A DNA stretch of 63,958 bases, the filler included, from Folioceros fuciformis (lineage: Eukaryota), in NCBI GenBank assembly GCA_049999805.1. It is 26 parts of 26 records of this genome, joined end to end, with 100 filler letters (N's around TTAATTAATTAA, not from the genome) between each part and the next. Parts side by side here need not be neighbours in the genome. Positions count along the whole stretch, not along the records: positions 29,275 to 33,432 come from JBNGIO010000181.1; 25 more parts are not named here. One strand, given 5' to 3'. The notes under the pieces are model-generated. The model did no database searches, was not told the origin of the DNA, and saw only the letters and a program-made list of their open reading frames with translations. A program made the position numbers and the translations under genes. Numbering within the stretch: position 1 is the first letter of the stretch; each line of letters opens with the position of its first letter. This document shows positions 3,701-59,426 of this stretch, in pieces.

Positions 3701-3800
3701 NNNNNNNNNNNNNNNNNNNNNNNNNNNNNNNNNNNNNNNNNNNNTTAATTAATTAANNNNNNNNNNNNNNNNNNNNNNNNNNNNNNNNNNNNNNNNNNNN

Positions 3801-5143
3801 ATTTGGTAGGAGTCCTCCACCGACCACTCCTCTTCTTCCCCTTCACATGCCAGCAAATGCACCTTGGCCCCTTGACAATGGGTCTTGGTGTGGCCTTGCT
3901 CACCACAAATGGAGCAAAACAAGTTAGCCCTGCCACTAGTTGCAGCCCTCCTTCTCTCATGTTCCTTGATAGCATGGAGGTGAAACTTCTCACACTTGCT
4001 CATCATCTCCTCCATCTTGGACTCCTCCTGCTCCACTTTCTTGGCTGTAGCCTCAGCCTCTTTCTTGACCTGCTCCACCTCCCTCTTGGCACTAGCCACC
4101 TCTTGCTTGGCCTTGGCTAGATCCTTTGCCTTCCTTGCTTCCTTCTTCTGCCTAGCCACCTCTTGCTCCTTCTTCTTCAGTCTTTTCTTGACAGCCTCGT
4201 CCTCCGAGGACTCCTCCTCTAAGCTGTCCCATGCTGAAGATGAAGAGGTCTCTGCTGCTGATTCTTCTGAAGAATCGCTCTCCTTAGAGGAATCTTCATC
4301 CGAGGACGATGACTCCCGCTTCTTCTTCCCCTTCCTAGGCCTGTTCTTCTTCTTGTCCTTCTCCCTCACTCTCTCCTTCTCCTTCTTGGATCTCCCTTTG
4401 CCCCACGGATGAGACTCCTCATAATTGAGGGCTGCCCTTATAGCCCTGTCCACATCTTTTTCTGCGAACAATTTCACATGGCCCCCCATCCTTGATCCTA
4501 AGCCTCCAGCGAACCACCTAATGGCTTGTAAGTCTGAATGAGGTCCACAACAATCCCGCAGGCTGTGGAACCTCTCCACATAGGCCTGCAAGGTCTCCTT
4601 CCTCCTCCTCCTCAAGGCCTCCAGCTTGGATAGCACAGAGCCCTCTACGTCTATCCCCCTGAACCGCTCACAAAAGGCCCTCTTCAACACATCAAAAGTT
4701 GCTGGAAATGTACCAACCTTGAGGTACTCTCTCCTGTACCACTTGGCAAGCCCTCCACGCAGTACACCATAGAACAATTGGATGCGCTGTGCATCCGCTG
4801 ATTCTTGGTTAGCAAGGGTCAACTGCTCAAACCTCTCCACAAATTCATCCGGGTCCTCATACCCCTTCTTCTCCCCATACAAGGGGTACAACTGCTTGGT
4901 GGACATTGCAACAGCTGGGGCTGCCATGGTGCCTGCACTCACCACTGCAGTTGCGGATCCAGCAGCTCCAACAAATGGAGTTGGGCTGATGTTGCTAAAT
5001 CCTTCAGCCCCTGCACTCCTAATCACTTGCACCAGTCTAGGATGAAGACCAAGGAGCAGACTTGGATTAGGTTGCCCTGGATTAGGCCTCCCCCCAATAG
5101 CTGAAAGTTGAGGGTCTTGTTCCAACGTGATTGATTCCCCCAA
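3801..5143 (-). mobile_element. gag: Ty3/gypsy Gag (Athila/Tat-like), truncated by the contig end
   Basis: Retrotransposon gag core (DPDEFVERFE...LRGGLAKWY...TFDVLKRAFCERF...ETLQAYVERF), a Lys/Ser/Glu-rich insert, and a CCHC knuckle CSICGEQGHTKTHC. It lies downstream of a PBS and LTR. Confidence 0.88.
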
Positions 5144-5398
5144 GATCTGCTGATTGCTTACCCCTCTCCTCCTCCTCTCTAGTGTATGCCCTGGCTATGC
5201 CCTCCTTAGCTCCCTCTCCACTGCTCCTTGCTCACGCTCCAATACTTGCTGCTGCCTCCTTACTTGAGCTTGAGCTCCCCCTTCAAAGCTAGAGTTGAAA
5301 TCTTCAGCTCCTATGCGGGGCATCCATCAACCCTGCACATTCCCTTGTACAGTCCCCTATCTAGGTCAGTCCTCTCCAAACCTTGACAGCAATGTCAC

Positions 5399-6143: not shown

Positions 6144-6243
6144 NNNNNNNNNNNNNNNNNNNNNNNNNNNNNNNNNNNNNNNNNNNNTTAATTAATTAAN
6201 NNNNNNNNNNNNNNNNNNNNNNNNNNNNNNNNNNNNNNNNNNN

Positions 6244-7568
6244 GTAAGGACAAGTCACTTATGAGCAATTTCATATCTACCAAGAGTACAGCTGAAAGAG
6301 TGCTGTTAGGGGATGAACATTCTCATACTGGATTACTCATCCATGGCACGGGTACTTGTTCCTTTCCTCTGGCTGATGGTACGAAGTTGGTACTTGACCA
6401 TGTGCTTTATGTTCCTGCAATGGGAAAGCACTTAGTATCCGTCAGGCAGTTAATGCGTTTGTGCCGCTATGATCTTTTGTTTACTCCAACTGGTTGTGTA
6501 CTTACCTTGCGTGGTAACCCTGCACGGGTTGTGGCAAAGGGGGTGCACTATAATGATTTGTACAAGTTGGATTTGGTGTGCTCTTCTCCTCCTAGTTCGC
6601 ATATGGTGCAGTATCCTTCTTATCTTCATGATCAGGCTCAACTTTGGCATGCCCGCCTTGGACATGCGAACAAGGACAAACTAGTCAAGATGTCCATGGG
6701 GGATTATTATAGGGAGCCTTTGCCCAAATGTTTCAAGGATCTGCCACTATGTGATGCATGCCAACGTTCAAAACAGAAAGAATTACCTTTCCCCACAGCA
6801 CCTGCCTTCAGGACCTCCCATATTCTTGAACTGGTGCATGCCAATCTTTCTGGCAGGATTCATGTGGTTTCCTTGGGGGGTGCTCTGTATTATTTAACTA
6901 TTACAGATGATTATACTCGATATTCCTGGACATATCCCCTCAAACAAACGTCAGACACTTTTCTTGTGTTTCAGGAGTGGCTTACCATGATTCAGCGACA
7001 GACTGGTTGCCTTCTAAAGTGCCTGCGTTCCGACAATGGCACAGAGTTTGTTAATGCTTTTTTTAATGATCTGTTGGCTACACAGGGAATTGTTAGACAG
7101 CTCATAGTTCCGTACACTCCCCAACTACAGTTCCCTACACTCCCCAACTATAGTTCCCTACCCAAACGGCGTAATCAAACCTTACTTGGCATGACTCGGA
7201 GCATGTTGAGTTGGTCTGGCTTGAACAAATGTTACTGGGCCGAGGTTGTGGTTACAGCCACTTATATACTCAATCGCCTTCTTACCAGTGGTTACAGCCA
7301 CTTCTTACTCAATCGCCTTCTTGCATCTTCGCGTGTTCGGGTCTCCAGCCTATGTCTATGTTCCTTCAGACCTACGGCAGAAGTTACAGGACAGGGCCAA
7401 ATCAATGCTTTTTGTTGGTTATGGGGAAGAAGCCAAAGCATAAAACTATATGACCCCTTATCTCACCGTTATGTCTTTGCTCGCAGTGTCTCCTTCAAAG
7501 AAATTCTTCAGCCTGCCCATGCCTCTTCTCCTTCTCCTGTTGATTTGTCTTCTATCTTTGATGAGCCC
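6244..7568 (+). mobile_element. pol: Ty1/copia pol fragment (protease C-terminus, GAG-pre-integrase, integrase), degenerate
   Basis: VLYVP, LWHARLGH, CDACQRSKQ, LELVH, DDYTRYSW, LRSDNGTEF, YTPQ; frameshifted after ~7290 and cut by an LTR at 7569. Confidence 0.92.
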
Positions 7569-8183
7569 TGTGGAGGCAAAACCCCGGGCACTAATTGCCA
7601 ACGAGTTCCACCTTTAGTGGCCACACTTATCCCACTATCGTTGAGACATTGGGTTTCGTTCCCACGAAGGAGCGATGGGGTTCCTTGCTGCTGTGGATGG
7701 AGGGTCGGACTTGATCGACTCGATGATGGATTCGAGGGCTCCCCTCCAGCTCCGATCAGGCGTAGGACAGGCCTCACTATCCGGTGGTCAGCTGCACCTC
7801 TCTCGGTGCCCACAAACTCACTCCAGTCACTACAACGACTCTAACCTCTCAGATCTGCGACTTCCTTCACTCACTTCACTCACTCTCTCGCTCCAGCACC
7901 AACACCAACAACTACTAGCAACCAGCAACGACACCACTACCTTCTACACTTCCCTACGGACTCCTCCTACCCGGCAAGAGTCACTAGACTAACCCCAAAC
8001 AAAAGGAAGAAGGGAACACACTCCCCTCTTGGGTATCTCCTCCCCACAACCTTACCAGACGCCATGAGACATGGCCGGCCTACAGCACTTGACCAAGCAA
8101 GGAACAAGAGTGGACAAGTTGAGAGAAAGACACACCCTTTACAATCAAGAGCTAGGGGCAAGCCCCTACACCCTGGTCATTAC
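7569..8183 (-). mobile_element. LTR family A, U5 end, inserted into copia pol
   Basis: Terminus TGTGGAGGCAAAACC on + (CCTCCACA-3' on -). Near-identical copies start at 11173 and 54692, with an inverted copy ending at 62150. Confidence 0.8.
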
Positions 8184-17951: not shown

Positions 17952-20020
17952 TTACCTTTGCTGAATGGCGCACTTGGTCTTCAGTGGGAGCATCCAAGGA
18001 TTCCTCCATTGATGATTCAGACATATCCGCCTTCCCTGATTCGCAATTTGACTAGACTGATCACAGCACCCCAGTTCTCCCCGTTGAGGATGTTGCCCCT
18101 GTGGGGGGGGAAGATCCGGTTGATGATTTAGGTGATTCTGCAGGTTTTGAGCTTGTTGGCCTTGATGATGCCATTGAAGTACCTGTACAGCCAGATGTTC
18201 CAGATCATCCTCCGGATCCACATGACTACCATCCTCAAGAACAAGTTGTTGATATCATTGAGCCTACCCTAGACGCTGACTTACCTGATCTACCACAAGT
18301 TGTAGAAGAACCTGGTAGACGGTATCCATCCCGTCAGCGTCAACCTCCAGATTACTACTGTGCTTTGGACTTTCGTCCATCTTCCTCTTATGTGCTCGTC
18401 AACGCTGCAAGTTCACTTGATCCTATTGAGCCTCAGTCATATGAAGAGGCACTGCGTCAACCTGATCACAAAGAATGGCGGAAAGCTATTCAGTCAGAAT
18501 ATGACTCATTAATTGAAAACGGAACATGGGAACTGGTGGAGTTACCTCCTGACAGAAAGCTGGTTTCATGCAAGTGGGTCTTTAAACTTAAAGTCAAAGC
18601 GGATGGTACCTTTGACCGGTACAAGGCTCGTTTGGTGGCGAGGGGATTTTCTCAAATCCCTGGCTTGGATTATCTTGAAACGTTCTCACCAGTTGTTAAG
18701 CTCTCCACACTTCGTATCCTCCTTGCAATATCAACATACTATGATTATGAGATACAGATGTATGATGTTAAAACTGCATTCCTATATGGCAAGATTGATA
18801 CAGAGATATACATGCAACAACCACCAGGGTACGAAGTGAAAGGAAAGGAAAACTATGCATGTAAACTGATCAAGTGTATATACGGGTTAAAACAATCAGC
18901 AATGAAATGGAATGCTGCTTTAGACACAGAACTTCTACAGCTTGGGTTCACAAAGAGCCAAGCTGACAGCAGCTTGTACATATACTTGAAAGGAGAGGTT
19001 ATATGCTACCTAGCAGTCTATGTGGACGATTTGATACTATCCAGTAACAGCCAAGCATTCATAACAAGTATAACTGATGTATTGGCCACCAAATTCAAGA
19101 TGTCCTGTTTAGGCCCCCTATAGAGTTGCCTAGGGATACACATCCAACGGAACAGGAAGACTTGGGTCATGACTCTGACTCAACCACGTTACCTCTTGGA
19201 TTGTGTCGAGCAGCTTGGCCTCAAGGATGCTAAGCCTGCATCAACGCCCATGGCAGCGGGTCAAAAACTAAGCAAGACCATGTCACCTGTAACTAGAGAC
19301 AAAAAGGCACAAGTGAAAAACATACCCTATAGACAGGGTGTTGGCAAGTTGATATACGCCAGTAATACAACAAGACCAGAGATTGCTTACACTACGAGTG
19401 TATTGTCACAGTTTCTGGAAAATCCAGGTGTGGAGCACTGGACAAGTCTTAAGCGTGCATTCAAATACCTGAAAGGTACATCTAAGTTAGGGATTACGTA
19501 TAAGCATAAAAAAGGACAGCCCTTGGACCTTGAAGTCTTTACAGACTCGGACTATGCCGGTGATATCGACAGCAGAAAGTCGGTTTCAGGATATGTGATT
19601 TCCATAGCAGCAGGTCCAGTGTGTTGGTCAAGCAAAAAGCAACCAACAGTTGCTTTGTCTTCAACGGAAGCAGAATATCGGGTCCTGACCGCGGCTGCAA
19701 AGGAAATCGTTTGGTGTCAATTGCTATTTAAGGAGCTAGGTATTCAAATACCAACGTGCATCACTATACATACTGACAATCAAGGCTTAATGGCCTTGGC
19801 GAGAAATCCAGTTCTTCATTCGAGAACGAAGCATGTAGAGGTAGAATACCACTACATACGGGGGCTCGTGAATGAAGGCAAAATAGATTTACAATATGTC
19901 CTGACGCAGGATAATCCAGCAGACATATTGACAAAAGCCTTAAGCAGAGAATTACACTTTAAGCACATGCAACGTTTGGGCATAGGAGATGCAGAAGCAC
20001 TCCTATCCAATTCAGAGTAA
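17952..20020 (+). mobile_element. pol: Ty1/copia pol (integrase tail, RT, RNase H); one in-frame stop at 19121-19123
   Basis: EPQSYEEA, YKARLVARGF, DVKTAFL, IYGLKQS, YVDD, FTDSDYAG, SSTEAEY, HSRTKHVEVEYHY. The linker region is homologous to the element at 29275-29820. Confidence 0.95.
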
Positions 20021-29274: not shown

Positions 29275-32140
29275 CTCCTTATGATCAGGTCTGCTTAAGG
29301 CCTCCTCATATGATTGAGGCTCGATGGGATCAAAAGATGGAGTGTCAGCATGGACAGCGACATGAGAAGAAGCAGTCCTGAAGTCCGGAGCTTGGTAAAA
29401 ATCAGGAGGCTGCCTATGGCGAGTAGGATAACGCCGAGGCTCTGCAACGGGCTCATTAGGCTGATCTGCAGCTGGGTCAGGGGCTGCATCATGGTTATCT
29501 AAATCAGCAGGTAAGTTTGCAAGGTCAATTAGATCAGGAGCAGGTTGTGCAGGAGGATATTGGTCCTGTATGCCCTGCTGCTGCTGATGTTTTGGTTCAT
29601 TGACAGGTGCAGGTTCTGCCACCGCAAGGTCATCAACATCAACAACTTCAAAATCAGCGACTGGATCTTCCCCTCCTGCAGGAGCAATGTCCTCCAAGGG
29701 GACAACCTGTGTTCCATGTTCAGACTGATCGAATGAAACATCATCATCAAGGGAAGCAACACCAACATCTTGGGAAGCTCCCACTGAAACCCAAGTGCGG
29801 CCTTCATCAAAGGTAACACTTCTGGCGTAAACAACTTTGTTTTTGGGAACATCATACAGTTTGTAGGCTTTAATGCCCTCTGTATAGCCTAGCATTAATA
29901 GCTTTTTGGCTTTGTCTTGCAGCTTCTTCCTCTTTTTCTTAGGTATAAAGGCATATGCAACACAGCCAAATGTGCGCAGATGGAGAATAGAAGGCTTGCG
30001 CCCTGTGAAAGCTTCAAAAGGAGTCTGGCCTTCAACAGAAGAAGTAGGCAACCTATTCTTCAGGTAAGTTGCAGTCATTAAAGCTTCTGCCCAGTATGGC
30101 AATGGTAACTGTGCTTGATGTAATAATGACGATGTCATCTCTTGCAGGCTTAGGTTTTCACGTTCAGCAACACCATTTTGTTGAGGTGTATACACCACTG
30201 TCAGCTGGCATCCTATTCCCTCAGATGCACAGTAAGATTGGAATTCATCAGAAATGAACTCTCCCCCATTATCTGATCTCAAGATTTTGAGTTGCCTTCC
30301 AGTCCATCTTTCAGCATATTTGATATAATGTCTGAAGTGACTGAAACACTCACTCTTCTGTTTAACAATGTAGGTTGTAACAAACCTGGTTTTATCATCA
30401 GTGAAGGTCAGGAAGTATTTTCCCCCTCCTATTGACGGCTGGGAAAGAGGACCACACAAATCTGTATGTACAAGCTCAAGAACTTCAGAGGCTCTATGTG
30501 GGGCCTTGTTCTTAAAGGCTGCCTGATGTCTCTTTGAAAGAACACAAGACTCACACAATGGGAGTGATGCCAACTGCCCTATAGGACCATCCTGGTAAAG
30601 ATTGCTTACAGCAAGCTTCTGAAGTTTTGCTGAATGTGGATGACCTAATCTCCTATGCCATAACATAGATTTTTCTATCTGTTTTGCAGATACAGCAGTT
30701 GCATCTTGTGTCAAATATGATGCTGGTACACTTCTGTTTGTGTGGAGACGAAACAAGTCTCTATCTGAGGACCCATAGGCAAGTATTCTGCTATGATTAA
30801 AAGCATCTAGTACTTGACATTCTGTTTGTGTGAACAAAATGTGACAGTGGTTGTCTGAATTCAACTTCCTAACTGAAATTAGGTTACGTGTCATGTCAGG
30901 AACAAAGTAAACATCATGCAGTGTTAACACATGTCCTGATGGAACTGGCAGGTCTATTGAGCCGCGACCTGGAGACACTAGGGATCTATCATCACCTAGG
31001 TATACATACTGATCATTGTAAATTTTGTATGTTTGAAATGAACCTCTGTCAAAGCAAATGTGGGCTGTTGCCCCTGTGTCTAGATACCAATCTAACACAG
31101 GCTTACTCTTGGTATTTGCTGACAGGCTGGCTGGATACAAGAAAGAACTTGTTGCAAAAATTGTAGTACCGACTGTAAGAGCTGAGGGTGTTGGCTGTTT
31201 CTTCACAACCACATGAGTTTCAGCGCTGGTCGAACCCTCCTTGCGAGGAACACCAGCCTGCTTTTTCCTACACTCACGCTCCCAGTGATCAGGTAATTTA
31301 CACCAATTGCAGTTTCCTGTTCTTTTTGGCTTCTTCTGGTTGGTTCCTCGTGCTTGAGAACCACCACCTCTTGAGGTACTACCACCACCCTTGTTAAAGG
31401 GTCTTCCTCCTCCACGTTCTCTATTTGATGTGAAGAGGGCTTGCTGCTTACCAGATCGTCTACCATGTGATCTGCTTGCTTCTTCTTGTAATAAGGCTCC
31501 CACTAACTCAGCAAAGCTTGTCTCTGGCAGGGTAACACCTGAAGCCTTTGCTAGTTTTCAGTATGGAGCTTGGAAGCATTAAAAGATGTCACAAAGTGTG
31601 ACCAGGAATTTGGTAAGGATATCAGGAAATATAATATAAGCATGTCATCCTTTATAATACATTTGAAGCACTCTCTAGCTTGGACACAAGTGTTCTGAAG
31701 TATCCAAGGTGTTTTTCAATTGAGTCTCCTTCTCTCATTTTACATAGTTGCAAATTTCTCATTGCTGTCATCTGACTTGTCTGATTGCTGCCTGAATACA
31801 GGTCTTGAAGTCTCGTCCAGATTTCTGCTGAGGTTATGCATCCTGAAGTCTGTCTTAGCATTTCAGAGGTAAGACCACTTCTGATTAGAAACATGGCGGC
31901 TTCATCCTTTGAGTCCCATGCTTCTTGTGCTCTTCTCTCAGCATTAGTAGGTTGTGCTAGATTTGCAGGTGCCGCTGGGGCTGGTTCATCCCCATTGACC
32001 ACCTTCCACAACTTCCTGTTTTGTAGGGCCCCTTTCATTCGGATTACCCATATGTCGTAATCCTGCCCTCCAAACCTATCTTTTTCTTTGAACCCTTCCC
32101 CACCTAGACTAGTAGAGGGGTCTGGTGCTGTGGTTGCCAT
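29275..32140 (-). mobile_element. gag-pol: Ty1/copia gag-pol (gag, CCHC, protease, integrase), with lesions near 31557-31654
   Basis: ATG at 32140; FGGQDYDIWVIRMKGAL, CNWCKLPDHWEREC, WYLDTGATAH, WHRRLGH, VHTDLCGP, RSDNGGEF, PQQNGVAER. Confidence 0.95.
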
Positions 32141-32253
32141 TTTTCCTCTTTTGTATGTTGGGTTAGCTACTCCCAATATACTAAGATTCTATAATGGCTG
32201 TTGCAGGGGTTCAACCTTTGAGACTTCAATTAAATGCTATCAGGTCAGCAGAG

Positions 32254-32982
32254 TCAGAGTATGTTTACAGCATTAGCAGGTCTGATAGCAAACTCTTGTT
32301 CTCTAACTCTGTTTGCTACTCTTTGGTTTCTAATCTCCCACTTATTGAATGCATACACTAAGCAGGAAGGGCAAGAGTTTGGGACACCAAACATATGCTT
32401 CTTACTTGTTTTCTTAGCGTGTTTACAAGCTACTCCCCTGTGTGCTGGGTTAGCAAGTAATTGTGGCTTTAACAAGGTAAGAAGTTTAAAGTCCAAATGC
32501 CCTATATGTTCTTGCAAGTCTCTTACATCTATACTAGTTGCAGAGACTTGACTCAGAATACTGCTGAAACGTGTATCTATGTGCTCTTGATGTGCCTCAA
32601 TTCTATTGACTAATTGAGTGACACTTGTGGCAGATGCAACGTGTGTTGTTAGAAAGCCTCTATGATGACCATTTCCATCAAAAGCTCTCTGTACGCGCAA
32701 TTCTGGGAGATTATCAGGGTTACGAGGTGGAAGGGCTATAATCAAGTGGTGCTAGTCAGGGAATATCACTTCAATTAAGGTATTGTAGGATTCCCTTACT
32801 TCCAACGCAAGCACTGGCTGATGCTGATTCCTTGCAATCCATTCAGCCACATGTTGATTAAGTTGATCAACAATGATGTTCCTTGCAGCTTGCGCACCTT
32901 GCCCCCTGCGGCGATTTTGATGCTGTGGAATTCGCTCAGCGGGGCGGGGATGCCATTGATGTCCTTCCAACTGGTTGGCCAT
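32254..32982 (-). CDS. Extra ORF (ORF0, ~243 codons, one internal TAG at 32752-32754) upstream of copia gag
   Basis: ORFs 32752-32982 and 32254-32745 share a frame and lie between PBS and gag. The C-terminal half is conserved in a second copy at 50910-51221. Confidence 0.8.
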
Positions 32983-33330
32983 TCATAAGGCCAACATGTG
33001 TGTTGTTTTGTAATTTCTATTTATCATTGTATTGTATATAAAATCTTAACAATCTACCTGCAGATTAGGTAGTTGTCCTAGCGCACTTCCTCTGAAATTG
33101 CTAAGATAGCAATTCAGAAAATGTGCGCGAGGATCACTTCCTTAATTTTGCCAGGAATTGTTAAATGCCTATACAAGAAAACAACACAAAAAATGTATTC
33201 TTTTGAATTTTGCATTCTTGATCAAGAAAACATTTTCTTTCTTGAATCAAAACAACAAAATTATTTCTAAATGCATTTTCTTCAAATGCATTTTTCAATG
33301 TGCATTAATTAAAATGCAATCTGTATAATC

Positions 33331-33343
33331 TGCTCTGATACCA
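33331..33343 (-). promoter_or_regulatory. Primer binding site, tRNA-iMet (TGGTATCAGAGC)
   Basis: Minus strand ...AAATAACA|TGGTATCAGAGCA; the 5' LTR end occupies 33344-33432. Confidence 0.93.
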
Positions 33344-33823
33344 TGTTATTTTAAATGGGATTTATAGATTATTCAAATCAAATAAAATTGAATTACATTG
33401 TCTACATATTCAAGAATACACTGTTATCTTTCNNNNNNNNNNNNNNNNNNNNNNNNNNNNNNNNNNNNNNNNNNNNTTAATTAATTAANNNNNNNNNNNN
33501 NNNNNNNNNNNNNNNNNNNNNNNNNNNNNNNNAATAGTTTTATTACGTAATATATATATGTATAATTGTGCACATATGTTAGTATTTGCTAATATAATTT
33601 GCTACTACAATGAGAGTCTAGACACCTTGGTTTGGTCCAATCTTTGGCACACTCTCTTCTTGCAGTTGTGACGGGCCACTTTGACAACTTTATTATTCAT
33701 CTTGCCCATTGATCAATTAGAGGCCAATGCATTGCTATGCACGACGTAGTGTGTGACTGTCATTGTTTCGTAGGCCAAGGAGACTGGTTTTCTTCCTTCA
33801 GGGAATGTCCATACACTCTAGGT

Positions 33824-34001
33824 AATAGTGTTTCTCTTTAAATTAACCTTAATAGTGTTTCTCTTCAAATTAACCTTAATAGTGTTTCTCTTCAAATTAA
33901 CCTTAATAGTGTTTCTCTTTAAATTAACCTTAATAGTGTTTCTCTTTAAATTAACCTTAATAGTGTTTCTCTTCAAATTAACCTTAATAGTGTTTCTCTT
34001 C
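33824..34001. repeat. 27-bp tandem repeat x6.6 (AATAGTGTTTCTCTTYAAATTAACCTT)
   Basis: Head-to-tail units; about two more units at 34571-34617. Confidence 0.95.
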
Positions 34002-34021
34002 ATGTTTGTCTAGCTTTGTCT

Positions 34022-38075: not shown

Positions 38076-39119
38076 CCATGAGCAAGGGTTTGTCCAAATT
38101 TGTCAAGGCATGTGCATTGGCTAATGTGGTGGATAAGACATCAAAAGAGTGTGAGGAAGTAGCTTCTTGCTTCGGTGGGTAGGTCCTTTTACGCCCAGAT
38201 TATGAAGTTCTCCACAAGTGATAATTTCAACAAAAGTAATAATGAAATCGTCCCCTAAATTAAGTGCCCTTCATTATTTTTTTGAGAGTAGATAGGTTTT
38301 CATCCCTTCTTTTATAACAAAGTCTTCATTTTTCTACCTCAATTGGTCATATTTGAAGTTAAAAATTTTCATGGTGATATATGTACATAGTTTATCCATT
38401 ATTNNNNNNNNNNNNNNNNNNNNNNNNNNNNNNNNNNNNNNNNNNNNTTAATTAATTAANNNNNNNNNNNNNNNNNNNNNNNNNNNNNNNNNNNNNNNNN
38501 NNNTTTGGTATGCTTTGTGCTCACTCTTAAGCTGATTCCAGGGACTGATCTTAGATTTTCACTGCGGATCAGATCACTGCAGGAAGAGGGACATGGCTGA
38601 TCATGGATGCTTTGGGGAGGGGTAGATTTCTTGTTCCCTCAGTACTCCAAGAAAGTTGTGTTTCTTTGCTTTCTGATCACAGTTACACCTGCCCAGCAAG
38701 CCTAGGGAATTGAGATTTTCCAGGGGTAGGATTTTCCCAAACTAGGATTATCTGGATAGGGAGTAGCTGAGCTTTGCTCACACTCATTCAGACTGTGGGG
38801 GGCAGTTGTAAGCTACGACTAGACGCGGCATGAAGGGAGGCCACCATCAGATTATTTGGGAGGAGCTAACCCTCATTTCTTGCATGCGTGGTTTGTTGGA
38901 ACCACATGTTTAGGGGCTCGTTTTGCCTTTGAGAACAGGGGTTTGATTTGGAGGCCAGCAACAGCCAGTAGAAGCCTGAAGGTACTGTGGGTATAGCTGA
39001 AGCAGTGTGTGGTGTCCCAGCGAGAGTCACTTCCCTAGGCCCGATGTTGTCAATTGCAGCACAGCACCTCACTGTTTTTGCCAAGCACCAGCTGTAGGTG
39101 TAACAGGGGTGCATGGGGC

Positions 39120-40485
39120 ATGCAACCAGATCAGCAAGAGGCCAGCCTACGTTACCGATTGAGGAGTCGAGACATTCCTATCAGGGTATCACCGGAGCGT
39201 GCACAACGGAGGAGAAGATGGGCAGCTCGACGACGCCATTTTGCAAGTGAAGAAGACTTGAGAGAGGACTTGGAACCAGCAACATCCGTTGGGCAACCCA
39301 GCTGGTCACCCGTCTTAGACTTGGGCAAGATTGTTGTGCTAACTAGCTCAAATTTAGGGGGTCAGCTAGTTTGTGACGAGGAACCTGAACAAGGGTCTCT
39401 CTATTCACAGCAATCATTTGTGAGGTCACAGCAGACACATCCAGGGTTTGCTGGGTCTGTCCTTGGTGTAGGGCAAGGCCTGGGTGACTTGTCTGAAGGG
39501 TCAGACACCATGGAGGGTGGTTCATCAGGGTTTAGGCCTGAGAAATTCTCAGGCAGACCAAGCACCCAATCCTTAAGGGACTTCCGCTTGTTCATCAATG
39601 CAGTCATCAGCAGGGTGAAGTTCAAACATGGTGCTGCCTACAACCACCAGTACATGTTTGAACAGTTGTCCAGCTACTTAGCAGATGAGGCATTGGATTT
39701 GTACGAGGCTCACTAGGCTGAGCTATCGGGCACAATTGCCACTCCTAACCCAGCCCATCATTCGGCTCTACATTTGGCATATAATGCCAAACTGGCAGCA
39801 GCCATTAATGACCATCAGGCTGAGATTGTAGCCAAGACCATCTCTGCCACCACACCACCTCCAACGGTGGTGAATTTGACACTAGCAGAGCGGGCTACTG
39901 CCACAGCTGGTGTGCAAGAGTTTCTACACACTTGCAAGTACCTGAACCCAGTGGAGGAGTTCCTAGCTATTTTGGAGAGGGCATTCCCACTGAAGACCCC
40001 AGAGAAAATTGCAGAACTTGTTGCCTTTGCTCGCAAAAAGGGGGAGACAGTCCAGATGTGCTTCAGGAGGCTACAGAAATTGAGGGAAGGTACAGGGATG
40101 TTAACAAATCAGGAAGCAGCGCAAAGGTTTTTGACTGCACTTGAAGGAGACCCGTTGTTTCATTTCCAGCTAGTTACATCCTTGGTGGACAAATATGGGA
40201 ACAAGTATACTTTGGAGCAAGTGCATGAAGAAGCTGAGAAGAAGGAGGTAGCCTTTTCGGCCTATGCCTCTCGGCATTCCAAGGCCTTCACGCACTACCA
40301 GTCCATGTTCTCTAGCAAGGGGGCAGCTAACACAGGTGCAGGAGCCAAGGCTGGTCAGATTAAGCCAGTTAAGGTAGCTTCAGCAGCAGCTCCAACGGCA
40401 GCAGTGGTAGCCATGTGTAACCATTGTGGCAGCCCTGTGCACATGTCCCCTGCATGCAAGTGTCCTCCGGAGGGACTCTACTGCA
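39120..40485 (+). mobile_element. Divergent retrotransposon Gag-like ORF, one in-frame TAG at 39714-39716
   Basis: PEKFSG, LSSYLADEALDLY, FARKKGETVQMCFRRL (major-homology-like) and a knuckle CNHCGSPVHMSPAC. The two listed ORFs share a frame. Confidence 0.7.
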
Positions 40486-44812: not shown

Positions 44813-46430
44813 ACAGCTGTGGAGCTCGTAGGACTCACACTACCTCGCAACCTGCCACTCCATGGATTCTGAACATTTGTCGAGTTTGATGACGCTTGCG
44901 GTCCACTCAACACTTGTGATTGTTGACCTGCATTGCTTGTTACCTCAGTTTCAAGCAAATCAGCTACACTACTTCCTTGGACTTCAAAGTACCAGCTACC
45001 CATTTCATCAAAGACTACATCTCTGCTTACTCTCATAGTCCGTGTACTGGGATTGTAGCACCTGTATCCTTTCTGTGTAACAGAATACCCAATGAAGACA
45101 CACTTTTCTGCTTTTGGATCAAGCTTAGTCCGCAACTCATCCGGAATATGGACATATCAATGCAACCAAATACCTTTAAGTGTGACAAATCAGGTTTCTT
45201 CCCTGTGAACTTCTCCTCCGGTGTTACACTGTGCACCGCTGCTGTGGAAGTTCTGTTCATGATGTACACTGCTGTGCTTACAGCTTCAGCCCAATAGTAG
45301 TGAGGCATCTTCTTCTCTGTCATCAATGCTCTCGCCACTTCTGCTATGTGCCTGTTCTTGCGCTCTGCAACTCCATTTTGTTGTGGCGCATAACGACATG
45401 AGTACTGCCGTTGAATGCCCTGTTCTGATAAGAATTTGCTGAACTCTCTGGAGAAGTACTCTCCCCCTCCATCAGATCTTAGGCATTTGATGTGCCTACC
45501 TGTTTGCTTCTCAACCATCGCCTTGAAAGTATGAAAATGAGTGATCACTTCACTTTTTTCTTTCATGAAATAGACCCACACCTTCCTTGTGTGGTCGTCA
45601 ATGAAGGTCACATAGTACTTGCAGCCTCCGATTGATGCAGTCTGTGTTGGACCCCATACATCTGAATGCACAACATCCAACACATATCTGCTGACATGTT
45701 TGTCATGGGGGAACGCATTCCTAGGCTGTTTCCCAAGTTGACATGCTTCACATATACCTTGCAGTCCATTTTCTGTAAGCTTGGGTATGCCTGTGACAAC
45801 CTTCTGATGCTGCATGGACTTCAACTTCTGCACATTTACATATCCAATGCGTTTGTGCCACATCTCTAGGTCTGTCACTACCCTTGTACCCTTCGCAAAC
45901 ATGGCTGACTTCAGCTTAGGAACCTCCACGTTCAAGGTGAACATCCGTCCAACCTTCTGTCCTTGAGCAATCAGGCGACCGCCTTTCTTGCACTCTTCAA
46001 CAAAGAGTCCTGCAGGTGTAAATCTAACCTGCAATCCTTGCTCAACCATCTACCCAACTGACACCAAGTTCTTGGTGATGTTGGGTACGTGAAGAACATC
46101 TACCAGGCACTTCACTTTGCCATCCTGCATCTTCAGAGGTACAGTTCCTGTATGCACAATTGCATGTGTTGTGTCATCTCCAGTTTCTACATATCCAGGT
46201 TTGTCAAGCACTTGCATTTCTTTGAACCACTCCCCATGGCATGTCATGTGGTTCGAAGCTCCTGAGTCCACATACCACACAATCTCACCATTGTTGGATC
46301 CATTAGCAGACACAGAGTTAAGCATATGCTGCATGACAAACAAGTTTTCTGAGTCATTCTGACTGCTGCTATAGGCATAATTGTTCTGCTGCCTCCTGTT
46401 GCCTTGATTTCTCCTTGGACAGTCTCTTTC
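44813..46430 (-). mobile_element. pol: Ty1/copia protease-integrase, with a stop and a frameshift
   Basis: WYVDSGASNHM, WHKRIG, CEACQLGKQ, VHSDVWGP, RSDGGGEY, PQQNGVAERKNR, SRDVVFDE. Confidence 0.95.
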
Positions 46431-46530: not shown

Positions 46531-47533
46531 TACTCTAGGCCGGATGCTGACAAGTGGAAGTTAGCTGTTGACGATGAGTACAATTCCTTAGTTAAAAATA
46601 ATACTTGGCAGTTAGTAGATCTTCCTCCAGGAAGGACTACTGTCAAGTGTAAGTGGGTGCTGAAAACCAAGTTTCAAGAGGTAGAGCCCCGCATAAGACA
46701 CAAAGCGAGGTTAGTGGCTAAGGGTTATAGTCAGCGAGAGGGAGTTGACTATCAGGGTGATCAGGTTTATTCACCTGTAGTCAAAGCCGCGTCTATAAGG
46801 ATGCTACTGGCCCTGTGTGCTGAACTTAACCTTACCATCTACCAATTAGATGTTTGCACAGCCTTTCTGTATGGTCATTTAGAAGAAGAAATCTATATGG
46901 ATCAGCCTGAGGATTACGAAGATAAGAAATATCCTCATAAGGTGTGTAAACTTCTACGTTCTAAATACGGGCTTAAACAAAGCCCACGCCTTTGGTACAA
47001 GCGAATTGACACATATCTCAAGAAGATTGGCTTTGTGCAAAGTGAAGCTGACACTAATCTTTATGTACTGCGAAAAGATAGTTCACTTGTGTTAATAGCT
47101 TTGTATGTGGATGACTTAGTCATTCCTGGAAATAATGTGGAGCTGGTTAACCAAATCAAGACAGATCTCAATAAAGAGTTTGAGATGAAAGATCTTGGTC
47201 AAGTCAAGTATATACTAGGAATGCACGTACATAAAGATAGGTCCACAGGAGCAATCTACCTCCATCAAGGGAGATATGTAGCAGGCATGCTGAAGAAGTT
47301 TAATTTGGAGAATGCTCGTGCAGCTGCAACTCCAGGTGCTGTTGGTATTAAGCTGTCCTCGTCGTCATGTCCTCAGTCTGAAGAGGATAAGAAGGAAATG
47401 GAAAGTGTGCCTTATAGAATGGCAGTGGGCACTCTCATGTTCCTTAGCAACTGGACGAGACCAGACATATCTAACACTGTGAATGCAGGTGCGCAATTCT
47501 CTGAGAATCCAGGTAGAGACCACTGGGTTGCAG
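46531..47533 (+). mobile_element. pol: Ty1/copia reverse transcriptase
   Basis: KARLVAKGY, LDVCTAFL, YGLKQS, LYVDD, TRPDI; homology stops abruptly at 47534, where TGTCAATAGG (probable nested LTR) begins. Confidence 0.95.
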
Positions 47534-47701
47534 TGTCAATAGGATCGACTGCAATCTACGTGCAAGTGTAGGAGAGGAGAGGAGAGAAGAGAGGGTGGTA
47601 TNNNNNNNNNNNNNNNNNNNNNNNNNNNNNNNNNNNNNNNNNNNNTTAATTAATTAANNNNNNNNNNNNNNNNNNNNNNNNNNNNNNNNNNNNNNNNNNN
47701 N

Positions 47702-49250: not shown

Positions 49251-50796
49251 GCCCATGCTGGTACAAATCACTTACAGCTAGTTTTTGTAGCTTAACAGAG
49301 TGTGGATGACCTAGTCGTAAATGCCAAAGTTTTGACTTCTCTATCTGCTGTACAGACACTTGAGAAGATCCTTCAGTCAAATGGGCATGTGGCTTACGTC
49401 TGTCTGTATGAAGACAAAACAAGTCTTTCTCTGAAGACCCAAAGGCAAGTATTTTCTGATGATTAAAGGCATCTAACACTTGACATTATGTTTGAGTAAA
49501 AAGAATGTGACAGTGATTATCAGAATTCAACTTCCTTACGGAAATTAAGTTACGTGTCATGTCTGGTACGTAGTACACATCATGTAACACTAACACATTT
49601 CCGGATGGTACTGACAGGTCTATGGTCCCAATACCAGGAGATACAAGGGATCTATCATCCCCCAAGTATACGTACTGATCCTTGACTGATCTGTACGCTT
49701 GAAATGCCTTTCTGTCCAAGCATATGTGGGCAGTAGCCCCTGTGTCTAAATACCAGTCTATGGTATGCTGAACCTTTGTATGTGTTGACAAACAGGCAGG
49801 TGACAAGAACGAGCTTGTAGCAAAGACTGTTGTACCAACTGTGAGGGCAGAGGGGGTTGGTTGCTTCTTAATAACCACGTGAGTCTCAGCGCTGGTTGAA
49901 CCCTCCTTGCGAGGAACACCAGCCTGCTTTTTCCTGCACTCACGCTCCCATTGACCAGGTAACTTGCACCAATTGCAATTTCCAGTCCTTTTGTGTTTTC
50001 TTTGTCTGGCTCCACGTCCTTGTGAGCCACCTCCTCTTGAGACACTGCCCCCACCCCTATTGTAGGGTCTTCCTCCTCCACGTCCTCGGTTAGAAGTGAA
50101 GAGGGCTTGCTGTTTACCAGTGCATCTGCTATGTGTTTTGCTGGCTTCCTCTTGCAATAAAGCTCCCACTAACTCTGCAAAGCTTGTTTCAGGTAGGGTT
50201 ACACCTGAAGCCTTTGCAAGCTTTTCAGTCTGGAGCTTGGAGGCATTGAAGGATGTCACAAAGTGTGACCAAGAATCTGGTAAGGATATTAGAGAGTATA
50301 GTGTAAGTATATCATCCTTTAAGGTCTCATTTGTAGCACTTTCTAGTCTTGAGACAAGTGTTCTGAAATGTCCAAGGTGCTTTTCAATTGAGTCTCCTTC
50401 CCTCATTTTACATAATTGTAAATTCCTTAATGCTGTCATTTGACTTGTCTGGTTCCTGCCTAAATACAGGTCTTGAAGTCTTATCCATATTTCAGTTGAG
50501 GTTGTGCATCCTGAAGTCTGTCTTAACATTTCTGAAGTAACACCACTTCGGATGAGGTACATGGCTGCTTCATCCTTTGCATCCCATGTATCCTTTGCCT
50601 TTTTCTCAGCTGTTGAAGGTTGTGCAGGAGGTGGAGGCATTACTGGGACCGGTTCTTCCCCAGTAACCACCTTCCACAATTTCCTATTTTGTAAGGCTCC
50701 TTTCATGCGGATTACCCATATATCATAATCTTGCCCACCAAACCTATCCTTTTCCTTAAACCCATCTCCACCTAAGGTTGAGGGATCACTGGCCAT
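49251..50796 (-). mobile_element. gag-pol: Ty1/copia gag-protease, second member of the ORF0 family; stop at 49486-49488
   Basis: Clear paralog of 29275-32140 (FKEKDRFGGQDYDIWVIRMKGALQNRKLWKVV, WYLDTGATAH). Confidence 0.95.
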
Positions 50797-50909
50797 TTTT
50801 CCTCTTTTGTATTTTTGGGTTAGCTACTCCCAAGAATACTAAGATTGTGTAATGGCTTTTTGCAGGGGTTAGGAAAAACTCAAGACTTCAGATGCTTCAT
50901 GCAGCAAGG

Positions 50910-51221
50910 TCAAAGAATATTGACAACATTGTGAAGTCTGTCAGCTGCAGGTACAACTACTGACTCCTCTTGTGTTCTGTTTGTTATTTTCTGATTTCTA
51001 ATCTCCCACTTGTTGAAGGCATACACAGAACAGGATGGGCAGGAGTTTGGGCTTCCAAACATATGTTTCTTACTTGTCTTCCTGGCGTGCTTATAGGCTA
51101 CACCCCTGAATGGAGGGTTAGCAAGCAAGGCTGGCTTCAACAACGTAAGAAGTTTGAAATCCAAGTGACCTATCTGTTCTTGTAAGTCTCTCAAATCTAC
51201 ACTATTTGCAGAAACCCTTTG
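50910..51221 (-). CDS. ORF0 C-terminal part, second copy (truncated by the contig end)
   Basis: RDLQEQIGHLDFKLLTLLKPALLANPPFRGVAYKHARKTSKKHMFGSPNSCPSCSVYAFNKWEIRNQ aligns without gaps to 32254-32745. Confidence 0.8.
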   Translation of the reverse strand, partial: QRVSANSVDLRDLQEQIGHLDFKLLTLLKPALLANPPFRGVAYKHARKTSKKHMFGSPNSCPSCSVYAFNKWEIRNQKITNRTQEESVVVPAADRLHNVVNIL

Positions 51222-56419: not shown

Positions 56420-58788
56420 TCAGGCTGATGGACCATTGTTGGTACACTTGGATTGGGTGGTACTAAAATGGACCTGGCACACAAATCCGTTAAGCACTTG
56501 GATCATTTTGTCTTGCTTCAAGGAACGTGGTGCTTTGTACTGAGCAAAGCTTCCGCCATTGGCGATGGAGCACTTGGCCAGCTCTTCGAATGCCCCTCCC
56601 TTGAGCATTCTGAGCTCCAGGGGGTTGATGGAGTTGGAGTTGCGTAACTCGTGATACACATAGTCAAAGCTCTCCTCCATGGTCTGACAGCACTTGTCCA
56701 GCACATCCGACGTGAGGCTGGGGTGAGGGTCAGACACCTCCCAGAAGACGACGTAATGCCCTGCCGGTTTGGATTGCGTGTCAGCGAAGCTGGTGTAGTC
56801 CCGGAGCTGGAGCCCCACTTCCTGCAGGTGCTGGGAGGCTCTGGTGACGGCGGTCAGTAGGTCCCTCTCTGTGGTCTTGTCGTAGTCGATGCTGAGAGCA
56901 CTGTTGGCCCTACCCACGAAATAGAAGGAAGGAGCCCTGTTGTAGTGGCCAGTGCACCTGAGAATGTCCCCCATCCGGTATCGGTACAGACCTGGTGCAG
57001 GATTCGGCACAGGTGCCAGAGGATCAGCCGAGCCATATAATATTTGTACGGTCAAGACCGATGGTACGATTACTCACAGCAACATCTGTGGCATCTGAAG
57101 ATCATGGAGTGAAGTATGAAACTCACCCGCATAGTTGGTGACCACGAGCTCGTACTCCTCTCCAACGTTGACATCTGCAAGCTTGGTAGCCCGGGTGTTC
57201 TGCTGGTTCTCTTCACCCGTGTCCTGCTTGGATGTGGAATTACTCCAAGGCACAAACTCGAAGTAGGCGATGCTTGGGATAAGGGTGTAAGACACGGCAG
57301 AGGGAGGACCCAGCGGGTTCATGTTCACAGCCAGATAGCTCTCAGAAGCACCGTACAGCTGGTTGCCAATGAGCCTCACATGGCCACCATACTGGTGTAG
57401 CGCGGGAATGTATGCCTCCATGGTACCCGCGGTTACCACATCCATGAGCTTGGCATTTGGCCACAGCCGGGGGACGATCCCCTTCCACTGCCCTCCTTCG
57501 CACTCTCTCCGCAATCTGGATGCCAGCTCCGGATTCGGCTTGCCCAGGAGCTTCTGACAAGCAAGCCTGGCTGCGGGATCGGTGATTCGAGAATCCACGG
57601 TTCCGGTGGCGATGTCTCGGCACAGCTGTTCCCACTCCTCCTCCAGAGCTCGCATGGCCCGCACCAGGGTCGAGCCCATGACTGCCCCCAGTCGCACCAC
57701 CTGCTCGGACTGCGCCAGCCCCAGCAGCAAGTGGCAGTACATGGCTTGCTCGCTGGAAGTGCAGAGAATGACATCGTCGGGGGAAGTGAGCTGGTAGGTC
57801 GGATCGTAGGGCCGGTTGCGGAAGAGCGGGTGGTTGTAGAAACTGCTGAGAACCGCTTGGTACAGCAGGCCTGAAGGCAACTGGCCGGAGTCTCTGCAGA
57901 AGAGGAAATACAGGCATTTTCCAGTATCCAGCCCTGGGAAGCTCCTGCCATAACCAGAGAAACCAGGATCGGATAAGTCCCAGATCGAATTGGGTTGCAC
58001 AGCGGTAGCTATGGCCGGCATACGTAGCACTACTAGCTAGAACCGTGCTGCCAGTGGTGAGGCCGCTCCGGATCCGGACAGAACAGTCTCACCTGCTGAG
58101 CACGGGCCTCATAAAGCTGTCAGCGAGGAATCGCCTTTCCGCATCCCCCTCCACATTGGGAAACAGCTTGGGCATTCCCTTGGACGTCCCAGAGCTGCCA
58201 ATCCCAACCCAGGTTGTAGTAGTATTACATTCCATTCCACAGCACCAACAGGATAATCCAAAGCAGGCTGCGGACGGCTCAACATTGCGACACGCACCTA
58301 CTCACCCTTTGACTAAACCCACGATCACGTTCAATCCCCGACCATCGAACACAATCAGGCAATGCGGCTCACCTATGGATGAACTCGATAGGAGGGTCGA
58401 CAGTGAGCAGGGGAGCTGTGTCACCGTTGGCCAGGCGCAGAATATCCGGTTCCACATCCGTGTACTCCACAAGAGGCACCTTATCTCTGAAAGCTTTCAC
58501 ATGGTCGTCCAGGTTGGTACCTGCACCGGGACCGATACCGGTGCAGCCAAAGCGGAGGAGGTATTGGGCGCCAGCATTCCTGCTCAGAATGTCTCGCAGA
58601 ACCTCCTCCTGCGCCTCGGCGGCGTTTGTTGTGATGTCCTCCAGATACCGCAAGACATTCCCCTGCCTTTTCACAAACTTTGTCAAGTCGTCCAGTCCGG
58701 GATCTGGTGTCGTGTTCGCAGTCACGTTGTTGATGGTAAGCAGCAGAGACCCTGGACGCCGAGCTCGCTCGTACTCCATGCTTTCCAT
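56420..58788 (-). CDS. GH3: GH3 family acyl acid-amido synthetase; exons 58373-58788, 58093-58194, 57127-57944, 56420-56991
   Basis: Canonical GT-AG junctions keep the frame. All three GH3 nucleotide-binding motifs are present (SSGTSKGMPK, YGASE, YRMGD), plus GHYVVFWE and QYKAPR. Confidence 0.95.
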
Positions 58789-59426
58789 CTCACCTCCACA
58801 CGGATCCGTTTGGGTCCCTCTCCCCCTTTGGATGCCGGATAGGTTCCAGCCAGTTTATAGCTTGCTTTCGTGCACCCTCCACCTTCCTCCCCTCCACGTG
58901 TGGCCTCAACAATAATAGGAGGGGTCCAGAACTTATCCAACACCAGGAACACTGATAATCTGACTGAAAAGGTCGATGGAGAGGTTGGGCACGCCCGATG
59001 TCCTCACCATCGCATCCGGGTCATATCCTCTTATCCAGCTCCATGCACCTGTCTCCGCATTGTGGCGCATTGTCCCGGCACTCTTAAGCCTGAGACATAG
59101 ATAGATGATAAGGCGCATTCCTTTCAATTCCCCGGCACATTTGCACGTACATGCGTGCCATCGCCTCCAGAAATCACCCAGCACGATCACGACCGCAGGT
59201 GGAAGAACAGGGATGGGGTTCGTTCGCTCGGCCTTAATCAGGCCAGGGCCTGAATCAAGTAATGACGAGAATTGAGAACCGCAGCAGCGTTCTCTTACCG
59301 TCTCCCACCACACAATTCCACATTCCATGATGGGTGCGTCTCAGATCACAGAACTTTTGGAGGAAAAGGGATACAAGTGCCAGAAGCATGGGTTGGCGCG
59401 AAGAGATTGGACTCCCGCCTGGACAT

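Follow-up and report, generated by a model that had tools for sequence, protein, structure and literature searches.

An extra open reading frame between the primer binding site and gag in a Ty1/copia family of Folioceros fuciformis, best read as a lineage-specific accessory gene

Introduction

Extra genes of plant LTR retrotransposons are known from several groups. Among the Ty3/gypsy Tat/Athila elements, Ogre carries an ORF1 with a plant mobile domain (PF10536), placed upstream of gag, and Athila an ORF1 of a different family (PF03078). Catalogues of plant LTR retrotransposons list extra ORFs by the thousand, most of the described cases being Ty3/gypsy or lying 3′ of pol, and by the descriptions in the literature consulted none has an established function. 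A treatment of the subject, as far as consulted, gives the functions of such ORFs as unknown (PMC7264820).

The REXdb survey sorts extra ORFs by place and direction, with a forward 5′ class, eORF-5′F, among its categories (Neumann et al. 2019, PMC6317226). In the parts of the survey consulted, extra ORFs of at least 250 codons are reported from 582 Ty1/copia elements, where they form 45 highly heterogeneous similarity groups, and the only copia lineage feature named in its main text is the 3′ forward ORF of SIRE (PMC6317226). For the Tekay chromoviruses of the Ty3/gypsy superfamily, a 5′ aORF has been described in sunflower Tekay 13-2 and in rice RIRE3, RIRE8 and Retrosat-2; 500 of 523 sunflower Tekay elements carry it, and its product is described as NLS-bearing, largely disordered and without cross-species similarity (PMC11728184).

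Here, we describe ORF0, a forward extra ORF between primer binding site (PBS) and gag of a Ty1/copia family. It shares its orientation, its place in the 5′ part of the element, its separation from the polyprotein and its lack of a conserved domain or outside relatives with the eORF-5′F class: ORF0 lies upstream of the polyprotein, is separate from it in both copies and is not made of tandem repeats, TRF finding no tandem arrays within 32254-32982. At 243 codons including the stop it falls just below the 250-codon cut-off of the survey, which is not a biological criterion. Like the env-like ORF of SIRE (Sirevirus), ORF0 is an extra ORF in a copia lineage, a heterogeneous kind of ORF; the SIRE ORF, however, lies 3′ of pol (eORF-3′F, in 74% of SIRE elements), whereas ORF0 lies 5′ of gag (PMC6317226).

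With the Tekay aORF, ORF0 shares its place between the 5′ LTR and gag, its orientation and its conservation within the family, and, in a likeness by description only, the few predicted helices, the biased composition and a basic NLS-like patch; what sets the Tekay aORF apart, again by description, is its gypsy superfamily, its length of ~400 aa and its proline-rich composition. The ORF1 genes of Ogre and Athila are extra genes of plant LTR retrotransposons too, yet they belong to Ty3/gypsy elements and have Pfam families, whereas ORF0 has no Pfam match, which places it outside those groups of extra ORFs that have a recognised domain (plant mobile domain, Athila ORF1, Transposase_28).

The best reading of ORF0 is that of an accessory gene specific to its lineage, a copia case of the known 5′ forward kind of extra ORF. 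Since extra genes of this general kind are known in plant retrotransposons, its novelty is modest. An earlier note on this DNA, made from the sequence alone, had proposed an unrecognised accessory protein, and of this claim the absence of a known relative stands, while the category itself is already catalogued as eORF-5′F (PMC6317226). In the literature consulted, which for the REXdb survey comprises parts of its main text, we found no copia ORF between PBS and gag described.

Sequence material and scope

The window, that is, the whole stretch of DNA analysed (63,958 nt, filler included), derives from F. fuciformis assembly GCA_049999805.1. It consists of 26 parts, contigs of 1-5 kb, with linkers of the form N44-TTAATTAATTAA-N44 between them, and because these are separate contigs joined end to end, features on opposite sides of a linker are unlinked in the genome. 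Copy 1 of the element lies on the contig at 29275-33432 (JBNGIO010000181.1) and copy 2 on the contig at 49251-51221, both on the minus strand; for the same reason, the truncation of ORF0 in copy 2 and of the LTR in copy 1 reflects contig ends and not biology. The codon-by-codon comparison covers these two copies and the last 40% of ORF0.

In addition, contigs from four public runs (X1-X4) were placed on the contig at 29275-33432. X1, X2 and X4 represent one DNA sample; X3 comes from another study and its RNA nature is guessed, stretches without X3 cover not being evidence of silence. None of the sequencing runs listed as carrying this sequence is recorded as RNA.

ORF0 and its place in the element

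The element belongs to a Ty1/copia family and carries ORF0 between the PBS and gag (Table 1). This order had been given in the earlier note, as had the ATG-initiated frame of ~243 codons with one TAG, the separate gag ATG, the copia assignment and the second copy with the same ORF in the same position, and all of these were recovered. The frame has 242 sense positions plus the stop, with the TAG at codon 77 (32754-32752) as its sole internal stop. At gag, Pfam gives the copia-type family Retrotran_gag_2 (PF14223, E 3.1e-23) plus DUF4219, and directly after gag-protease of copy 1 follow gag_pre-integrs, rve and SH3_retrovirus, the contig ending inside the integrase and without a reverse transcriptase. 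The PBS-like 12-mer is presumably complementary to the 3′ end of the plant initiator tRNA-Met. A tRNA scan found no tRNA genes in the window. As far as the survey text consulted goes, tRNA-Met is the primer of most copia lineages (PMC6317226).

Table 1. Features of the two element copies, in positions of the window
Feature	Position	Strand	Remarks
5′ LTR, 3′ end (89 nt)	33344-33432	minus	directly upstream of PBS, ends ...CA; cut by contig end at 33432
PBS-like 12-mer	33332-33343	minus	directly after LTR end
AT-rich leader, 349 nt	32983-33331	minus	8 upstream ATGs (33305, 33291, 33276, 33233, 33215, 33027, 32997, 32986), each opening a short uORF
ORF0, 242 sense positions + stop (243 codons)	32254-32982	minus	ATG at 32982, terminal stop 32256-32254
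ORF0 C-terminal part, codons 146-242	32257-32547	minus	comparable with copy 2; 74% identity in alignment
ORF0-gag spacer, 113 nt	32141-32253	minus	5′ part diverged, last 70 nt conserved
Predicted hairpin	32136-32198	minus	closing stem includes gag AUG; RNAfold
gag-protease-integrase	29275-32140	minus	Pfam; gag ATG at 32140; stop and frameshifts in gag; integrase cut by contig end
Copy 2 ORF0, last 103 codons + stop	50910-51221	minus	upstream cut is the contig end
Copy 2 ORF0-gag spacer	50797-50909	minus	carries the same hairpin (50792-50856)
Copy 2 gag-protease and start of integrase	49251-50796	minus	open apart from 1 stop

The two copies share 78.8% of their nucleotides over 1983 nt and have ORF0, spacer and gag in the identical order. 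ORF0 and gag are in different frames, each of the two copies has an ORF0 stop of its own, and both copies of ORF0 end in the same ...VNIL-stop. Position, frame, stop codon and amino-acid sequence of ORF0 are thus conserved. A tblastn search of the window with ORF0 returned the two known copies and nothing else, and BLASTP revealed no similarity between ORF0 and the element's gag. Given the stop in ORF0 and the stop and frameshifts in gag, copy 1 itself is dead.

The TAG reported in the earlier note is a feature of the window's copy: at its first base, all eight covering contigs from the public runs give a sense codon (three each in X1 and X2, one each in X3 and X4). At least 80% likeness to the element was found for 361 contigs in X1 and 385 in X2, and per run 3-8 contigs cover sites in ORF0 versus 5-8 at sites in the N-terminal part of gag, these being contig counts and not copy numbers. 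Two further letters of ORF0 are private to the window's copy, or nearly so, all covering contigs differing from the window at 32634 and most of them at 32700.

As a separate observation, in run X4 the C>T (200) and G>A (359) differences strongly outnumber every other kind on 29275-33432. This is the pattern that a bisulfite-treated library would give, in which case methylation of the element could be read from X4.

In the leader, a palindromic motif of 10 nt occurs twice side by side, together with five upstream ATGs that contain ATGCA and a two-copy tandem repeat of 25 nt (33269-33293 and 33207-33257).

Purifying selection on ORF0

Purifying selection on the protein had been proposed in the earlier note from ~67 aligned residues; the overlap is in fact 97-103 codons long, and the synonymous differences and the Cys-to-Tyr difference quoted there are present in the alignment. 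Comparing copy 1 with copy 2 by the Nei-Gojobori method, dN/dS is 0.122 at a dS of 1.27 for the ORF0 tail (97 codons) and 0.125 at a dS of 0.83 for gag (158 codons), meaning that in these two copies ORF0 equals gag and both lie well below 1. In the 75-codon core of ORF0, with 82% nucleotide identity, the ratio is 0.086. The 58 differences in the 87 ungapped codons are distributed 13/12/33 over codon positions 1/2/3 (chi-square p 7e-4), and synonymous sites have changed far more than non-synonymous ones (Fisher p 1e-10).

Comparing all six frames over the same 87 codons, ORF0 has the lowest ratio (0.133, no stops) and is the sole frame that is free of stops in both copies. Of the remaining frames, four have a dN/dS of 1.27-2.05 and contain 5-9 stops, and the antisense one whose third positions coincide with those of ORF0 has a ratio of 0.22 and 3 stops. 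As a neutral yardstick, the spacer in its 5′ part is 46% identical, versus 82% in the ORF0 core and 80% in gag; the last 22 codons of ORF0 are 52% identical. Taken together, dN/dS and the divergence of the spacer lead to the conclusion that neutral divergence between the lineages of the two copies is saturated and that, along this path, ORF0 was as constrained as gag.

The compared region comprises codons 146-242, the first ~143-145 codons lying beyond the contig end of copy 2. Conservation of the N-terminal 145 codons is indicated indirectly, by the open frame, weak codon-usage scores and contig cover. With codon usage trained on the element's gag-pol (1359 codons), the ORF0 frame outscores the other five throughout, with 0.06 bits per codon in the N-terminal third, a small margin, and 0.16 in both the middle and the C-terminal third. 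Met1 is the only in-frame Met ahead of residue 197, so the conserved part of ORF0 needs the Met1 start.

These data also bear on whether the region might be a cis-acting RNA leader, involved in packaging or dimerisation, or an accidental open frame whose protein is not made or not needed. Retroelement leaders carry structured signals, the AUG of ORF0 has a poor context behind many upstream AUGs, and no sense RNA was seen, all of which would suit such a leader. Constraint on RNA, however, would not focus change on third positions, nor would it give a dN/dS of 0.13 in one frame and above 1.2 in four others, and by a rough estimate chance alone would very rarely leave 243 codons interrupted by no more than one stop at 46% G+C. 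We consider a mere leader or a chance frame very improbable, and ORF0 to be, with high probability, a real and selected coding gene of the copia family.

What distinguishes ORF0 is that it is a copia 5′ ORF constrained as strongly as gag where neutral divergence is saturated, and this makes it a clean candidate for asking what such accessory proteins do. With two copies from one organism so far, it is a lead rather than a result.

The ORF0 protein and the search for relatives

ORF0 encodes 242 residues (about 27 kDa) rich in A, L, R, Q, N and H, and its C-terminal 164 residues have a pI of 9.9. The motif H188-x7-H196-x7-C204-x2-C207 does not vary between the two copies, nor do a helix-prone stretch and a Lys-rich patch. 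The earlier note had given the motif as C-x-H-x7-H-x6-C-x2-C: C-x1-H, H-x7-H and C-x2-C agree with the sequence, while the distance from the second His to the following Cys is x7, not x6. Cys186, ahead of H188, is Tyr in copy 2. Zinc binding and a coiled coil are conjectures from the sequence, and the anti-silencing, RNA-binding or particle-trafficking role suggested in the earlier note is conjectural as well.

None of the searches returned a relative. Three pieces of ORF0 gave no Pfam family at E <=1, zinc-finger families included, and no match at that threshold to the families of known extra genes, i.e. the plant mobile domain (PF10536), Athila (PF03078/PF20167) and Transposase_28 of Retand (PF04195). 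A search of 5.8 billion clustered proteins yielded no relative either of residues 79-242, at near and longer lengths, or of the full ORF0 with X at the stop, and phmmer with residues 79-242 found 0 matches at E <=0.001 among 1.84 billion representatives. The best hits of a two-row profile in PDB sequences (E 0.024, a lipoprotein, and 0.18) were taken as noise, the ESM Atlas gave no usable match with ORF0, and scans of metagenome and viral contigs with ORF0 and of metagenomes with the gag alignment revealed no relatives. As no homologue was found in any search, no biochemical role is supported for ORF0.

Structure prediction adds little: AlphaFold2 reached a pLDDT of 43.0 for the whole ORF0 and 44.9 for residues 100-242, both unreliable, with low-confidence helices predicted at 121-146, 153-160 and 165-176. 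A complex prediction for two copies of residues 100-242 scored 0.02, which speaks neither for nor against self-association.

Because ORF0 has no detectable relative in Pfam or in the protein collections searched, no captured host fragment is recognised in it. Nevertheless, ORF0 might be a transduced piece of a lineage-specific host gene, whose conservation would stem from recent capture or from selection apart from transposition. Gene capture by plant LTR retrotransposons is documented, and the same source, as far as consulted, describes captured fragments as usually present in one or few copies (PMC7264820). Blank searches leave room for such an origin, orphan host genes often being missing from gene predictions, yet 1.84 billion representatives contain no match and the codon usage of ORF0 is like that of gag-pol. 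Moreover, two subfamilies at a dS of ~1.1-1.3, with the spacer down to 46%, keep the ORF0 frame, its stop and its junction with gag. On balance, capture of a host gene appears unlikely, and we return to ORF0 as a gene of the element.

Start codons and the route to gag

The arrangement of ORF0 and gag prompts one to ask how gag comes to be translated when so long an ORF precedes it. The AUG of ORF0 has a weak context (T at -3), overlaps an out-of-frame AUG 4 nt upstream and is preceded by 8 upstream AUGs, making its efficient translation from this AUG doubtful on sequence grounds. The gag AUG, with A at -3 and G at +4, has a strong context and is separated from the ORF0 ATG by 9 further ATGs. 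With ~18 AUGs upstream of it, the gag AUG would call for a route other than scanning; ribosomes thus probably do not reach gag simply by scanning from the cap.

The 70 nt before the gag AUG, although non-coding, are 89% identical between the copies. RNAfold predicts the same hairpin at the gag AUG in both, that of copy 2 having one more base on each side of an inner stem; the folding z-scores of -1.8 and 0.07 fall short of significance, and covariation would take more than two sequences to show.

Alternatively, ORF0 might be an upstream exon that is spliced in sense, or recoded, onto gag and yields an N-terminally extended Gag isoform. Sense GTAAG donor-like sites occur inside ORF0 at 32405 and 32526 and AG dinucleotides within the conserved 70 nt before gag, and splicing is known in plant LTR-retrotransposon RNAs, e.g. 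the Ogre intron in the survey text consulted (PMC6317226). An extension of Gag is nevertheless rather improbable, given that the frames of ORF0 and gag differ, that both copies keep the ORF0 stop after ...VNIL, which a spliced-out tail would not need, and that no sense-strand joint is found among the joints listed. We continue with ORF0 as a protein separate from Gag.

Spliced antisense contigs over the element

In run X3, a 1479-nt contig lies on the element as ~10 blocks, accompanied by shorter contigs over ORF0. Their multi-exon pattern spans 29286-33100 on the + strand, in antisense to both gag-pol and ORF0, the introns measuring 90-238 nt. Ten of the 12 joints are GT-AG and one is GC-AG on the + strand, mostly with GTAAG donors, and the twelfth has 12 extra letters; the canonical splice ends on the + strand identify the introns as antisense to the element. 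Two of the introns fall inside ORF0. Joined in silico, the spliced antisense form has no frame above 151 codons and 23-33 stops per frame. In copy 2, 7 of 7 donors and 5 of 6 acceptors of the antisense introns still have their splice dinucleotides, which may follow simply from the sense code.

No sense ORF0 mRNA was seen, the only RNA-like contigs over ORF0, those of X3, being spliced on the opposite strand. Their cover of ORF0 is antisense and therefore says nothing on ORF0 translation.

One may ask whether the conserved feature resides on the other strand, where selection would act on an antisense ORF or on the antisense RNA in its spliced form. The X3 contigs, with + strand splicing along the entire element and two introns in ORF0, would accord with this, as would the kept splice dinucleotides and the dN/dS of 0.22 in antisense frame 2. 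This frame, however, has 3 stops in 87 codons and owes its low ratio to the third positions that it shares with the ORF0 frame; the spliced antisense RNA has no long frame, and splice dinucleotides that lie within coding sequence may owe their retention to the sense code. We regard a conserved antisense feature as most improbable and keep to the sense ORF0 as the object of selection.

A possible role for ORF0

The explanation that we prefer is that ORF0 is a genuine coding accessory gene of one plant Ty1/copia family, a forward extra ORF between PBS and gag that is under purifying selection across the subfamily split; for this account as a whole, confidence is evenly balanced. Its product would consist of a Q/R/H-rich N-terminal part, which is less certain, and a basic C-terminal half (pI ~9.9) with putative amphipathic helices, the Lys-rich patch and the invariant H-x7-H-x7-C-x2-C. 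Such a protein would most likely act in trans, on the nucleic acid or the particle of the element itself, with nucleic-acid-binding chaperone, packaging factor and nuclear-targeting factor as candidate roles. If the gene is real, this trans-acting role on nucleic acid or particle is our best guess from composition and motif, and we offer it tentatively, at somewhat less than even confidence.

Regarding expression, the template for ORF0 translation would be the genomic RNA in its unspliced form, since the first ATG is the only one in frame ahead of the conserved part. Gag could then be reached by shunt, internal entry, reinitiation or a spliced RNA, and the conserved 70 nt together with the hairpin over the gag AUG would be the candidate signal for this route. 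Extended further, the copia lineage would be functionally bicistronic, first producing an orphan basic His/Cys protein that the element needs, e.g. for RNA handling or nuclear entry, and then gag-pol via the hairpin at the gag AUG, with a multi-intron antisense RNA over the same region. This wider scheme is speculative, and we think it more apt to fail than to hold.

Other features of the window

Besides the two copies, the window contains other retrotransposon pieces, namely one gypsy-type gag and four copia protease/integrase or reverse transcriptase fragments (3752-5194, 6192-7841, 18056-19120, 45036-46049 and 46531-47568). The copia integrase at 45036-46049 is just 37% identical to that of copy 1 and hence represents another lineage. 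Rfam gave 0 matches in the whole window. Three stop-free frames of 225-298 codons on the + strand are without a Pfam match at E <=0.001 (19124-20017, 39039-40485 and 58009-58839). A host gene is represented by a GH3-family coding stretch with the N-terminal and central domain at 57077-58036 on the minus strand, which is indicative of a land plant. Finally, on the contig that adjoins copy 1 in the window, a 61-codon ORF on the minus strand (33818-34003) is made up of ~7 tandem repeats of a 9-residue unit.
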